From positions 1,696,001 to 1,760,000 of the forward strand of contig OZ240215.1 of NCBI GenBank assembly GCA_965197585.1: 64,000 nucleotides of DNA, written 5' to 3'. Positions 18,260 to 51,794 of the stretch are shown here, one piece after another. The translations under genes were made by a program, and so were the position numbers. The first letter of the stretch is position 1. Every line of letters starts with the position of its first letter. The stretch is from Dehalococcoidia bacterium. GTDB taxonomy: Bacteria; Chloroflexota; Dehalococcoidia; Plut-88900. The notes beneath the pieces were generated by a model, which was given only the letters and a program-made list of their open reading frames with translations, was not told the origin of the DNA and searched no databases.

Positions 18260-18356
18260 AGATATCCCTCCAGTCCTAGTTCAATCTTAACTGCTGGCCC
18301 ATCTGTCCCCTCCCTGTGGGGGCTGCTGGTAGCCCTACCCTCCCCTCCGTCATTCC

Positions 18357-19412
18357 TGTAAGTGTTAGGTAATTCGTTGACAGATTGGTATAAGAGGCCA
18401 ACACCAATCTGGAGGCGAGAATGCGAGACAATAGCAAGGACCTCACCCTTGAACGTAACTACATTCAGAAGTGGCGGTTCCTCATCCATGAGTATCAACT
18501 GGTCAAGGCAGGGAAGCATCCCCGTTTCCGCTTCGCCCAGGACTTCTACTCCTTCCACGGCACTAGCCGTCAGACCTTTGCCAAGTACTACAACCGGTTC
18601 CTCCTCTCCCCCTCCGACAACGCCTTCCTCCCCCGTAAGCGGGGTCCCGGGTGGAAGTCCCGCCGCACCCTGCCCTACATTGAGCAGAAGGTCATCAACG
18701 AGCGCCTTAACGGTACCAACCGTTACGAGATCTATGCCATACTCAAACCCATCCTTAAACACAACACCCCTAAGCCCTCCACCATCTACGCCATCACCAG
18801 ACGCCACGGTTTCAATAGGCTCACAAAGCCGATGCAGCAGTCGAAGCGCAAGATCATCAAGACCCGGGCAGGAGAGCTGGGCCACCTGGACAGCCACTAC
18901 CTCAGCCGGGATACCATCGTGGGCACCAAGCACCGCTACTACCTGGTGGGCCTCATCGACGCCTACACCCGTCTGGCCTGGGCCGAAGTGGTCGGAGACA
19001 TCAAGAGTCTCTCCGTTATGTTTGCTACTCTGAAGTCCATCAATTTCCTTAACGTGGAGTACGGCATCCAATTCGAGGCCATCCTCACCGACAACGGCCC
19101 CGAGATGGCCTCCCCAAGGAACACCGAGGGCCACCCCATGGAACGGATGCTCAATGAGCTGGGCATAAAGCACCGCTACACCCGCCCTTATAGGCCCCAG
19201 ACCAACGGGAAGATAGAGCGGTTCTGGAGAACCTTGAACGAGGACCTGCTGGAGGGGACAACCTTCGAATCGGTCTCGGAACTGAAGGACGAGCTTCAGC
19301 AATACCTGATCTACTACAATACTCAGAGACCCCACCAGGCAATGGACGGAAAGACCCCTTTGGAGACCCTTAAATCCATCTAATTCTGTCAACGAATTAC
19401 CTGACATCCACA
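18357..19412 (+). mobile_element. IS481-family insertion sequence
   Basis: TGT...ACA ends; IRs TGTAAGTGTTAGGTAATTCGTTGACAGA vs reverse complement TGTGGATGTCAGGTAATTCGTTGACAGA; 5-bp target duplication ATTCC (18352-18356, 19413-19417). Confidence 0.9.
18421..19383 (+). CDS. IS481-family DDE transposase (integrase core)
   Basis: GELGHLD, LTDNGPE, RPYRPQTNGKIERFWRT, YYNTQRPHQAM. Confidence 0.92.
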   Translation: MRDNSKDLTLERNYIQKWRFLIHEYQLVKAGKHPRFRFAQDFYSFHGTSRQTFAKYYNRFLLSPSDNAFLPRKRGPGWKSRRTLPYIEQKVINERLNGTNRYEIYAILKPILKHNTPKPSTIYAITRRHGFNRLTKPMQQSKRKIIKTRAGELGHLDSHYLSRDTIVGTKHRYYLVGLIDAYTRLAWAEVVGDIKSLSVMFATLKSINFLNVEYGIQFEAILTDNGPEMASPRNTEGHPMERMLNELGIKHRYTRPYRPQTNGKIERFWRTLNEDLLEGTTFESVSELKDELQQYLIYYNTQRPHQAMDGKTPLETLKSI

Positions 19413-19666
19413 ATTCCGGCCCCCGAGCCGGAATCCATCCCAGGGGCCGGGTGAGGCCGCACACCCTGTCGCAGATGGAACATCCGCCTCTAAAGGAACC
19501 GCTGAGGCAGAAGCCCAGTCGAAGCGTCAAGCGGGATGGGTGAGGGTCCGCTCACCTTAAGCCGAGTCGAAGGCTCGAGCGGGGGTGTCCTGTCCCTCCG
19601 GCCCTAATTCAGCCTTCCCTGCCAACGCCTCTACACCTAGACTCTTGGCACGGGCATTTCCTATAC

Positions 19667-31744: not shown

Positions 31745-32166
31745 GTAAAAACCCTCACTGAAAATTACACAAGTTGACCGGGTCGAAACAGCGTCATAAT
31801 TCTACCACGACTCGCTACCACGTCCCGTTCACGATCCCACCCCCCGATCCGGAGTCGATCCAATCCCGTAGGGGCGACCGTCTGGTCGCCTTCCCCCGGT
31901 CCCTCACGCTGTAAGGGCAAACTCTCGTGTATCCCTGGTTCCGAGGGGCCGCTCACCCTGAGCGCCGTCGAAGGGTCGAGCGTGGGGCGGCCCACCACCG
32001 CAAATCCGTCGCGTCCCTAGAAGACCCCCATCCCCGCCCCCTTATCCGTCATTCCTGCGGAGGCAGGAAACCATCCCTCCTGAAGGCGCACCTCCCGCCG
32101 AGCCGGGCCCCCTCCCCGTAGGGGTGGTTCGCGAACCGCCCTGCCGTATGGTGTGACACCAACCCC

Positions 32167-32196
32167 TTGACCCAAGCAAAACACTTGTACTATATT
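32167..32196 (+). promoter_or_regulatory. Sigma70-like promoter with overlapping LexA-like box (locus 1)
   Basis: TTGACC-N18-TATATT; AAAAC-actt-GTACT at 32178-32191. Confidence 0.6.
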
Positions 32197-32202
32197 CACT
32201 CC

Positions 32203-32800
32203 CGACCGGCCAGTCACCCACCCTAAACCCAAGGAGGAACCATAACCCAGGGGGAAACCCAGCCCCGTCCCACATAGCAGAAGACTCAACGTCCAAGCCC
32301 ATCCCAACGGCCCACGCGCCGCCCCACGGCTCAAGCGAAAGCCGCCATCTCCTCACCCCACGGGTCCCCTGTACCCTTCCCTGGTCCCTAGGCGATGGAA
32401 GGCCCATCGACTCTAAGCAGCATGTAGGCTTGCGAGACCGGCCTACTCGACGCACCTCTCACCCGGCGCGTTCGAGTCAACGCTATGCGCATAGCCCGCG
32501 AATATACGGGGCCCTCCAATGCAGGGCCCGCCAGGGGCCTTCGTGCCCCCGGCTCTGACTCCACCGTCGTTCCCTTCGGAGATTCCCACCCCCCAGCGGC
32601 GGAAGTTGAGTCGTACTCCCATCCCTCCGAGATGGTCGAGTAGCGTCTTGCGGACGAGACACCCCGCCTCTCTCGTCCGCCTCAGTAAAGACACGTGGGG
32701 TAATCGCAGGCTGGCCTCCCGCCCCTGCCCAAGAGTCCCGGACCTTCCGTCGCCTTCCCCCTCCAAAAAACAAACAACGAACCCAAACCCCACAACCGAA
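32203..32800 (+). ncRNA. Candidate large structured ncRNA, copy 1
   Basis: Paralogous to ~50991-51667; long-range helix 32391-32402/32743-32754; many internal hairpins; no credible ORF; ends approximate. Confidence 0.6.
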
Positions 32801-32845
32801 TACCCCCACCGATACGGCCCTATCCTGCTGGACAAGCGCACCGCG

Positions 32846-43938: not shown

Positions 43939-44889
43939 TCAACCGGCGCGGGTATACGGATCGCTACACTGTATTGTCTGGGAGGCAAGCCCGCAAGATA
44001 TAGGGCAGCTATCCGACAGGTGGAAGACTCCTTTCTTGAGAGGGGGCTTTAGTCCGAGGGCGAGGTGTGGGCGGTGGTAGTGATACCGATCCAGGAACTG
44101 CTCTACTAATCTCCGGCACTGGGGAAGGTCCTGGGCGCTGTAGCGGGTCCAGCCCAGACATTCTTTCCGCACTGTCCGGTTGAAGCTCTCGATGTAGGCC
44201 TGCTCGTTCTTCTTGTAGGGCCGAGCCACCCGGTGTCGTTGGCAGTAGGCCAACACCCGCTCTGCAAAGGCCTCTTTGAACTCACTGCCCCCGTCCGTTT
44301 GGATCAACTCCACCCTGCCATCGAAGCGCCGTGTCATCGCTTGTTCCAGGAAGGCACAGCCGTAAGCGGCGGTCAGGGAGGGGGCTAACAGGATGTCTGC
44401 CTCCCTGGTGTATATGTCGATGCCGGTGAAGGCAAACAGGCCTCCAAACATCACCGTGTCCATCTGTACCACCTGGCGAGGGCTGCTGGCCGTGGGCACC
44501 GGCCCTCTACGCCGATTCTTCTTCCACTTGGAACGGATAATGTACTTCTCCTTCAGGATCTCATATATCTTAGGCACTGACAGGCGTACCTCGTGTTCCC
44601 ACTCCAGGAAGTAGGCGATCTTCTGTCCACAGCACCCCGCCTCCCGCTCCCTAATGGCCCAAATCCATCGCTTCACCATCGGGTCGACCCGCCTCCCTAA
44701 CCTGGGCCCCTTCTTGGCTTGCTCGTATCGACCAAGGAAGGGCAGCAGCCCCTGTTCTTGGATGCCCCGAACCCACAGATGGATCGTCTCCCGGTGTTTA
44801 CCCAGCTGCCGCGCTATCTGCGCTTTTGTCATCCCTTGCTCGTACAACTCCCAGGCCAACGTTATCAGTGTGAGATTTGACATGTCCAT
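43939..44889 (-). CDS. Integrase-core (IS481/IS3-like) transposase
   Basis: N-terminal HTH; QMDT, IQTDGGSEF, EQAYIESFNRT, YHYHRPHLAL. Confidence 0.9.
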   Translation of the reverse strand: MDMSNLTLITLAWELYEQGMTKAQIARQLGKHRETIHLWVRGIQEQGLLPFLGRYEQAKKGPRLGRRVDPMVKRWIWAIREREAGCCGQKIAYFLEWEHEVRLSVPKIYEILKEKYIIRSKWKKNRRRGPVPTASSPRQVVQMDTVMFGGLFAFTGIDIYTREADILLAPSLTAAYGCAFLEQAMTRRFDGRVELIQTDGGSEFKEAFAERVLAYCQRHRVARPYKKNEQAYIESFNRTVRKECLGWTRYSAQDLPQCRRLVEQFLDRYHYHRPHLALGLKPPLKKGVFHLSDSCPISCGLASQTIQCSDPYTRAG

Positions 44890-50843: not shown

Positions 50844-50954
50844 AACTGAGTATCGCCTAGTTTATCGGCCCATTTGACTGGTACCCTTGGGAGTATAGCA
50901 TGGTGTTAGATGTTCCCCCTGATCCCGTTCACATAGAGGAGTGACATTAACCTA

Positions 50955-50984
50955 TTGACAGGATAAGTACGGTTGTTCTATATT
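50955..50984 (+). promoter_or_regulatory. Sigma70-like promoter with overlapping LexA-like box (locus 2)
   Basis: TTGACA-N18-TATATT; AGTAC-ggtt-GTTCT at 50966-50979. Confidence 0.65.
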
Positions 50985-50990
50985 GGTGCC

Positions 50991-51667
50991 AGGTCTAGAC
51001 CACTACCCTCAACCACCTTAAGGAGGAACCAACACCCAGGGAAGCCCACCCGACCCACCCGAGGACTCAACGCCTCAGCCCATCCCAACGGCCCTCGCGC
51101 AGGCCCGCGGCTCAAGCGAAACGTCCCCCTACGGAGGACCGCCATCTCCTCATCCCCACCGGGTCCCGTGCACCCTTCCCTGACCCCCAGGCGATGGAAA
51201 GACGCCCTGGTTCGCTATCGTTCCATGTGAGGCTCCTAACGGAGATGCCGCTCCTTCAAGCGGAATAGCGGTCGGATAGGCCCGGCGCCGAGGCACTCTC
51301 GGTACCCCGTCCGCTTAATGAAGCCGGGAGCCGGTGGTCTACGCGCTCCGGGTCGCACCGGCAAACTTGGACACATTACGCCTGCAAGAGGCTCCACCCG
51401 GACGCTGGACGAGCCTCCTAGCCGCCCTATAGCGGTGCAGCCAACCCCCCGGAGTCAGGCTCGGACCTGCTGGCCCTGAAGGTCCCTGCCCATGTCCAGC
51501 GTATACAGGGCCACAGGCCGCAGCAGCGGCAAAAGCGGGCCGGGCACCCTTGCCTCAGGGCGTCGGAGCACCCGAGGCACAGGAACAGGGGCAGCGTCCA
51601 GCAAGCGTCTTCCATCGCCAACCCAAAACCCAACAGACAGAACGGAAACCGAAACCCCACAATCGAA
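50991..51667 (+). ncRNA. Candidate large structured ncRNA, copy 2
   Basis: Paralogous to 32203-32800; long-range helix 51190-51205/51605-51619; many hairpins; no credible ORF; ends approximate. Confidence 0.6.
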
Positions 51668-51794
51668 GATGGAACATCCGCCTTGGGTGGGTCCGCCTCT
51701 GGAGGACTGAAGAAAAGGCCAGTGTGTCACTAATCTATTGAACGAATACACCCCCTTTCCCCTCCTCCCCTAACCCTGTTAACATTCTCGGCGC

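Follow-up and report, generated by a model that had tools for sequence, protein, structure and literature searches.

Related elements

In eukaryotes, non-autonomous transposons that carry gene fragments include the Pack-MULEs and Helitrons. In bacteria, the Tn3-derived TIMEs are described as non-autonomous transposons of mosaic structure that arise through miniature inverted-repeat arms (PMC4133298). Bacterial MITEs with promoters, including Correia elements, MITEAba12, BrickBuilt, QMITE1/2, and SonMITE_1, are the subject of a review (PMC10969869), according to which their transcripts fold stably and the QMITE elements yield sRNAs.

The 830-bp element described here, designated E24, resembles the promoter-bearing MITEs, as far as that review characterizes them, in being multi-copy, non-coding, and intergenic and in lying directly upstream of genes (PMC10969869). 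Terminal inverted repeats, target duplications, and sigma-70-like promoters, features named in the same source, are also shared. However, E24 is 830 bp long and GC/C-rich, whereas the MITEs described there are typically AT-rich (PMC10969869). Its stable stem is formed by internal blocks 330–550 nt apart that were inherited from a phage gene, and not by the terminal repeats as in MITEs. Also unlike the promoter-bearing MITEs, over half of the copies of the element are armless, the internal modules are re-assorted, and insertion takes place at a fixed offset from -35-like hexamers. The short transposon arms around captured foreign DNA, amplified as a unit, recall Pack-MULEs, Helitrons, and TIMEs, the latter as outlined in the source given above. 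The captured unit would in this case be a promoter with the relic of a phage packaging operon, and the arms resemble those of an rve-type insertion sequence (IS), not Tn3. Compared with the phage gene terL, the relic copies are non-coding and truncated, number in the dozens, and each possess a promoter of their own.

Large or multi-copy non-coding RNAs of bacteria include OLE, GOLLD, ROOL, and HEARO/omega RNA, as well as the msr-msd RNA of retrons. The element is similar to these in size. Its long stem joins distant segments like a1/a2 of retrons, and it is multi-copy like HEARO. In contrast to all of them, it has no match in Rfam 15, no RVT_1, and no adjoining TnpB/IscB-type gene at either copy in the window. 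A full-text literature search, mostly at the level of abstracts, returned no description of this repeat family or of terminase-derived repeats.

Overall organization

The window, i.e., the whole 64,000-nt stretch of DNA that was analysed, contains two copies of the element, E23 (copy 1) and E24 (copy 2). Table 1 lists their parts. The order of parts is the same in every copy: a promoter, a leader of ~35 nt, a 5' domain of ~170 nt, the 5' arm of the closing helix, an interior, the 3' arm, a tail of 50 nt, and optional hairpin units. The leader is of three types. The 5' domain starts with a Shine-Dalgarno-like AAGGAGG that is not followed by a start codon. An alignment of copy 1 with copy 2 shows conserved flanks around a dissimilar middle and a 16-nt indel in the 5' domain. 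Both terminal arms are present in E24 and form imperfect inverted repeats. A contig of run X19 is without 44 nt at window positions 51661–51706, a difference that corresponds to copy-number variation of the CCGCC..GGAGGA hairpin unit.

The genes neighbouring the two window copies are tatA/tatC, DAO, and those of a molybdopterin oxidoreductase and a TPR protein. The genes downstream of the family copies have no common functional theme, except for eight paralogues of one large family, which is amidohydrolase-like as judged by eye.

Table 1. Coordinates of E24 and E23 in the window
Feature	Position	Strand	Basis or remark
Left target-site duplication CCCCT, 5 bp	50916..50920	.	Word single in the G003 site, on both sides in G000
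Whole element E24, ~830 bp	50921..51750	+	Empty orthologous site in G003; contig junction; 3/9 genomes
Left terminal arm, imperfect inverted repeat of right arm, GTGACA end	50921..50952	+	16 left arms genome-wide
Own sigma-70-type promoter, TTGACA-18-TATATT, 11/12 match	50955..50984	+	Promoter match
Conserved 5' domain, opens AAGGAGGAACC	51020..51189	+	Without start codon or conserved frame
5' arm of closing helix	51190..51205	+	Homologous to terL codons for DGRFLD
Interior, type 'cluster 4'	51206..51604	+	16 members, 6 in this genome
3' arm of closing helix	51605..51619	+	Homologous to terL codons for LG(S/T)SIVK
Unstructured tail, C/A-rich, G/U-poor	51620..51669	+	Composition, MFE
Repeated small hairpin units of CCGCC..GGAGGA type, variable in number, and A-rich linker	51670..51718	+	
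Right terminal arm, holds GTGTCAC, end ..GAATACA	51719..51750	+	27 right arms genome-wide
Right copy of target-site duplication	51752..51756	.	Comparison with G003
Copy 1 = element E23, no terminal arms	32167..32803 (end about)	+	Interior in cluster 2
Copy 1 promoter	32167..32196	+	
Copy 1 helix arms	about 32391..32406 and 32740..32755	+	Tail to about 32803

Copy number and distribution

The earlier note had regarded the two window copies as a pair of paralogues, a view that the size of the family contradicts. A blastn search with the conserved 5' part identifies 57 copies in the 3.43-Mb single-contig genome, and a degenerate 58th copy with a deleted 5' domain was located after this set. The genome thus contains at least 58 copies, and a first look yielded 45–90 candidates in each of the eight sister genomes.

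The family is present in all eight other genomes of the genus, i.e., in all nine examined, and is absent from the three other genera of the same family that were searched. Twenty-nine other families of the class gave one weak match (E 4e-4). An exact-motif scan of genome contigs found at least 92 stretches, and among the matches listed only records named 'MAG: Dehalococcoidia bacterium' occur; viral contigs contain no exact match of the 5'-domain motif. The 5' domain is 73–100% identical among copies from the nine genomes. Orthologous proteins of the species that carry the family are only 77–86% identical, indicating that the family is not uniformly young. As a genus-wide repeat family of uncultured Dehalococcoidia, equipped with strong promoters, it takes up ~1% of the genome.

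Insertion sites and terminal arms

The orthologous locus in genome G003 is uninterrupted. Five nucleotides at the junction are present once in G003 and twice in the genome under study (G000), and this empty site with its single 5-nt word defines the bounds of E24. In addition, an independent 880-nt contig (run X20, record 23) joins position 50920 to 51773, skipping 852 nt. E23 and E24 are each found at their loci only in G000, G002, and G005, three of the nine genomes. In the other six, neither is detected within 1.5 kb of the orthologous gene when both strands are scanned.

Both terminal arms are present in 12 of the 57 copies, the right arm only in 14, the left arm only in 1, and no arm in 30. 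A word of 5 nt or more is common to the two flanks in 7 of the 12 two-armed copies, compared with 7.6% of non-cognate flank pairs. A sequence matching TTGACA at four or more of six positions lies 7–12 nt beyond the right arm in 18 of 26 copies (background 3.1%), while other offsets give 0–1 of 26. Insertion of the element generates a 5-bp target duplication, and most insertions lie 6 nt upstream of a -35-like hexamer. This preference for sites directly upstream of such hexamers is unusually precise.

An IS481-like IS is present in the genome in ~20 near-identical copies. It encodes a 320-aa rve/rve_3 transposase, has TGT..ACA ends, and generates 5-bp duplications within a REP-like hairpin module, GTCATTCC..GGAATC. 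One copy is located in the window (~18350–19430, gene 18421–19383 on the + strand), and several copies are located 0.1–1 kb from repeat elements. Aligned by eye, the terminal arms and the ends of this IS are alike at ~18 of 29 positions, a loose likeness. The genome yielded neither an IS carrying the arms of the element nor an autonomous partner whose ends match them. Two candidate leads to such a partner were discarded. A recurring TGAACCCGTTC.. word lies inside a repeated coding sequence, and the ends of the IS that splits E05 differ from the arms. This IS is a different rve-type one with a 438-aa open frame, inserted just past the left arm of E05 (G000:C1:659340–660640). With so many copies lacking one or both arms, and with no matching autonomous partner, the reading as a DNA transposon is incomplete.

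Relationship to a phage terminase gene

The interiors of class B copies match about a dozen other loci. Two of these are intact genes encoding a 463-aa protein and the rest constitute a second relic family. The intact protein matches PHROG 5909, terminase large subunit, with E values of 7e-6 and 8e-5, and a Bacillus phage terminase-like protein with 33.8% identity over 90% of its own length (tblastn, E 5e-55); a Pfam search with it gave no match. On these protein similarities, the source gene is that of a terminase large subunit (terL). One intact terL is located upstream of portal and major head genes. The other (L189:9830–11831, - strand; G000:C1 ~1117829–1119830) belongs to an orphan operon composed of a terS-like ORF, a small ORF, and terL. 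The orphan operon, whose upstream ORF encodes 132 aa, lies between UbiA/pckA/glmS and yidC/jag, with no phage structural genes beside it. The promoter of this operon is of the form seen in the elements, which also occurs at 13 of 22 intact terL loci across the genus.

The homologous stretch, which comprises all arms and the class B interior, corresponds to codons ~240–376 of the 463-aa TerL-like protein. Profiles built from interiors only match intact terL exactly between the arms for cluster 2 (E 1e-47) and cluster 5 (E 6e-8). The cluster 1 profile shows only a weak match, outside the arms. No profile match to the intact terS-terL loci was obtained with clusters 0, 3, and 4, nor with the tail or the 5' domain. 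A suggestion made by eye, that the 5' domain and tail stem from the terS-like gene or the 3' end of terL, is unsupported by the profile search. In a six-frame search with TerL, residues ~195–376 are detected at the relic loci as well as within the elements E15, E25, E30, E33, and E51. Copy 1 is colinear with terL in the sense orientation, and copy 2 aligns at its ends only. The copy 2 interior yields no profile match at E <= 1 against the 22 intact terL loci and no six-frame TerL match. Class B copies have an identity to terL of 0.74–0.80 in the arms, as against 0.46 in the interior. The terL ancestry of the arms and the copy 1 interior is shown by this homology. The tie of copy 2 to terL is confined to the arms and a few adjoining bases, and its origin is only partly established.

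All 22 intact terL genes from the nine genomes have the two arms at a spacing of exactly 390 nt, with pairing energies of -17 to -39 kcal/mol. The helix is contained in the RNAalifold consensus of 17 intact genes, where its positions are invariant or change on one side only (G.U); two-sided covariation of the closing helix was not seen in the intact genes. Since the arms encode conserved residues, the presence of the helix in the gene could be historical. An inner hairpin does covary in the 17 genes (alignment columns 128–142), with CG, GC, UA, and AU at two pairs. The same hairpin is retained in copy 1 with a different stem sequence (window ~32508–32530).

The second relic family (L177–L188, e.g., G000:C1:3022200–3023000 and 3061500–3063400) gives at least 14 leader-motif matches. 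The promoter form is shared with the element family, but the leader differs and includes an RBS and an ATG. The part derived from terL is longer, contains internal tandem duplications, and extends no farther than the 3' arm. The stem is longer and better than that of the terL gene. The long stop-free frames of this family are probably a by-product of the T-poor composition (15% T in the sense strand), and the R/P/S/H-rich translations look decayed.

Interior types

The 134 interiors available fall into 13 clusters. Members of cluster 4, to which the copy 2 interior belongs, are ~86% identical. Cluster 2, which holds the copy 1 interior, comprises 22 members, including 12 from this genome. Each of the three leader types combines with 5–8 interior types, documenting a modular re-assortment of the family parts. 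An invertible cassette between the inverted arms was rejected, as none of the 134 interiors has a reverse-orientation match.

It had been proposed from the two window copies that each interior holds cargo or targets specific to its paralogue. This proposal is not supported: the 13 clusters are re-assorted with three promoter/leader types, and the copy 1 interior is a decayed terL fragment. No target identified by complementarity was found, the matches of the interiors elsewhere in the genome being other relic copies, terL genes, or short C-rich stretches. There is no evidence that the interior encodes paralogue-specific targets, and it behaves as swappable, decaying filler.

The closing helix

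The 15-bp closing helix predicted for E24 is confirmed, its arms being located as listed in Table 1 and paired in the MFE fold. The fold of 51190–51619 has an energy of -207 kcal/mol, compared with -181.8 +/- 5.6 kcal/mol for 100 dinucleotide shuffles (z -4.53), none of which is as good. The opposite strand gives a z of -3.55, and copy 1 (32390–32755) a z of -5.07, against shuffles.

The arm motifs AGGCGATGGA and TCCATCGCC are found 326–554 nt apart in all 57 copies of the blastn set, allowing up to two mismatches in the former and one in the latter. The pair is also present in 77 of 79 further copies parsed from 80 related-genome loci. The 9-bp core is Watson-Crick paired in 1156 of 1206 cells over 134 copies, the remainder consisting of 30 G.U, 7 A.C, and 13 other cells; the excess of G.U over A.C shrinks to ~7 versus 4 distinct variants, making the strand test weakly informative. 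Cognate arms pair at -33.5 +/- 4.3 kcal/mol and arms combined across interior types at -27.5 +/- 6.4 kcal/mol, with the core alone contributing -16.8. At least four of the five positions next to the core are paired in 113 of 134 copies, as against 1283 of 2680 permuted pairs. Farther inward, an internal loop is followed by another short helix.

The inner pairs change while the closing helix is kept, as the comparison of the two window copies had suggested. ACGC/GCGU in class A stands against GUCC/GGAC in class B, a difference of three adjacent two-sided changes. That the arms of the non-coding copies stay complementary through these changes between interior classes favours selection on the stem. 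A GACAC/GUGUC variant of the extension is present within class A. The ends of class A resemble inverted termini (AGACGC..CTGGA), and the class A extension could represent the inverted ends of a nested insert instead of RNA-level compensation. The case for a stem at the RNA level is not decisive.

Several of the small hairpins listed for the copy 2 interior appear in the MFE fold, among them CUCC-UAAC-GGAG and GCCGCU/AGCGGU, but their support across the 16 members of the same type is thin. Among the 139 predicted pairs of the cluster-4 fold, two-sided changes are seen in 5, exclusively one-sided changes in 36, and some non-canonical cells in 44. The selection on the fold that had been suspected would hold for the closing stem alone. 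The earlier note would have taken its reading as refuted by variable regions that are fragments of known repeats or decayed genes with no conserved pairing. The copy 1 interior, as decayed terL, comes close to this, yet the closing pairing is conserved. The conserved 5' domain is nearly invariant and shows little covariation.

Promoter, transcription, and coding potential

The promoter is included upstream in every copy. It matches the consensus at 8 or more of 12 positions in all 57 copies and at 10 or more in 48, and 49 distinct spacers occur. The sense strand consists of 37.6% C and 14.9% T. The tail averages 39% C, 44% A, 9% G, and 8% U over the 57 copies and has an MFE of -0.7 kcal/mol, compared with -14.0 for 50-nt interior windows. 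Neither window copy has an intrinsic terminator on the + strand, and a Rho gene is present in the genome. Contigs from RNA libraries reach a summed depth of up to 112 on the 5' domain versus 3 on the flank, numbers to be read in view of unstranded contigs, ~57 genomic copies, and DNA carry-over that could look alike. These depths are compatible with transcription of the element, which we infer, but are not decisive for a multi-copy element.

A coding function of the 5' domain and interiors was rejected on account of indels, which measure 1, 2, 17, 19, and 20 nt within an interior type, in addition to the 16-nt indel of the 5' domain. The variable columns of the interior lack 3-nt periodicity (62/55/53), and the longest stop-free frame differs in strand and length among members of an interior type. 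Searches of Rfam 15 gave no match at the gathering score in the window, none at E <= 1 on the elements of 20 element loci, and none at E <= 0.1 on those of 12 family-2/terL loci. A tRNA or tmRNA was likewise dismissed, none being present in the window. Mobility of a retron or SINE-like kind was discarded because RVT_1 is absent from the genome, a single contig that is 91.9% complete by markers, and because each copy contains its upstream promoter.

Proposed model and alternative explanations

Our verdict is that the members of the family are MITE-like elements that bear a promoter and have been built from the relic of a phage gene. The whole explanation, in which 51190–51619 forms the middle module, clamped by the stem, of a non-autonomous mobile element of 830 bp derived from a phage packaging operon, is probably correct. 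The family would descend from such an operon and keep the promoter form of many intact terS-like/terL operons. Two complementary terL blocks 390 nt apart would have been retained by the element and, in the non-coding copies, have become the base of a 15–24-bp stem. This stem would enclose an interior that is decaying in copy 1 and is diverged or replaced past recognition in copy 2. Insertion may be carried out in trans by an rve transposase of the IS481-like type. The internal promoter would produce a C-rich RNA of ~0.7 kb, whose middle may be held as a closed domain by the closing stem, with selection maintaining the pairing. The unstructured C/A-rich tail is a candidate Rho loading site, which would end the transcript before the promoter of the neighbouring gene. 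The paired ends noticed in the earlier note are real, and we regard the locus as the mobile relic of a gene in which the stem has been preserved, rather than as one member of a pair of custom RNA genes.

Part of this evidence would also suit a neutral relic, that is, an inverted repeat inherited from terL or from the termini of a class A nested insert, with young copies that spread selfishly and no selection on the fold. The arms already exist in all 22 intact genes, in which the residues they encode are conserved and two-sided covariation is not seen, E23 and E24 are confined to the three closest genomes, members of the same type are ~86% identical, and class A ends look like inverted termini. 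We consider this explanation doubtful, for the arms of class B are far better kept than the interiors, the stem of the family-2 relics exceeds that of the gene in length and quality, class A calls for a number of coordinated changes involving the two arms together, and the family resides in species too divergent in their proteins for it to be uniformly young. Another alternative, the proposal of the earlier note extended to the entire family, is a family of trans-acting structured RNAs, in which a constant 5' handle and the closing stem would present a variable middle with its own target or ligand in each copy. A promoter kept in every copy, a stem maintained with compensated changes, folds of copies 1 and 2 that are better than shuffles, a 5' domain conserved across species, and discrete interior types re-assorted with leader types like cassettes would all be in keeping with such RNAs. 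They are nevertheless quite improbable: one large interior group is a decaying sense-oriented terL fragment, the inner covariation of cluster 4 is weak, the interior matches described above include no antisense targets, the copies are insertion polymorphisms and not stable orthologous genes, and Rfam gives no match even at E <= 1.

The derivation from a packaging operon also brings to mind a signal in cis. The helix-bounded 390-nt terL segment would then be a structured signal for packaging recognition or RNA processing, or this segment or the 5' domain a DNA-level packaging or recombination site of a resident phage or GTA-like head module. The 60–90 promoter-driven copies, inserting just upstream of host promoters, would act as packaging-initiation or terminase-decoy sites. 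One intact terL is indeed accompanied by portal and major head genes, the other belonging to the orphan terS-like/terL pair among housekeeping genes; the same terL segment is retained by two independent relic families, and a covarying hairpin lies inside it in the intact genes. However, the 5' domain is unlike the terS-like region, arms 330–550 bp apart suit RNA better than duplex DNA, the orientation of the elements has no simple relation to the replication arms defined by GC skew, and the motif is absent from the viral contigs searched. Both forms of the proposal are very improbable. With the mobile relic as the preferred explanation, a long-range 'RNA-like' intergenic stem can be the heirloom of a protein-coding phage gene, amplified by transposition and apparently kept paired. 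A stem that proves functional as RNA or DNA would connect the packaging genes of a phage with gene regulation in the host or with gene transfer. Should it have no function, the family would still serve as a negative control when covariation-style reasoning is applied to repeat families.

Other repeats and transposase genes

A second, different rve-type transposase gene is located at window positions 43939–44889 (- strand). Its 316-aa product has an HTH at the N-terminus, and this also gives a score against Terminase_5. A solitary left arm (G000:C1:3404961–3405100), identical up to the -35 box, is found directly upstream of the groES-groEL promoter and a CIRCE-like inverted repeat. Upstream of many non-armed copies (e.g., G000:C1 ~851900–852150 and window ~31900–32150) are intergenic regions composed of further repeat modules. 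Some of these modules form long perfect hairpins, whose stems differ from copy to copy yet remain complementary (TAGAGG..CCTCTA type and TAACGAYATATC.. type). Another intergenic module near the non-armed copies has the form CCGCTCACCCTGAGC..GTCGAAGGGTCGAGCGG.
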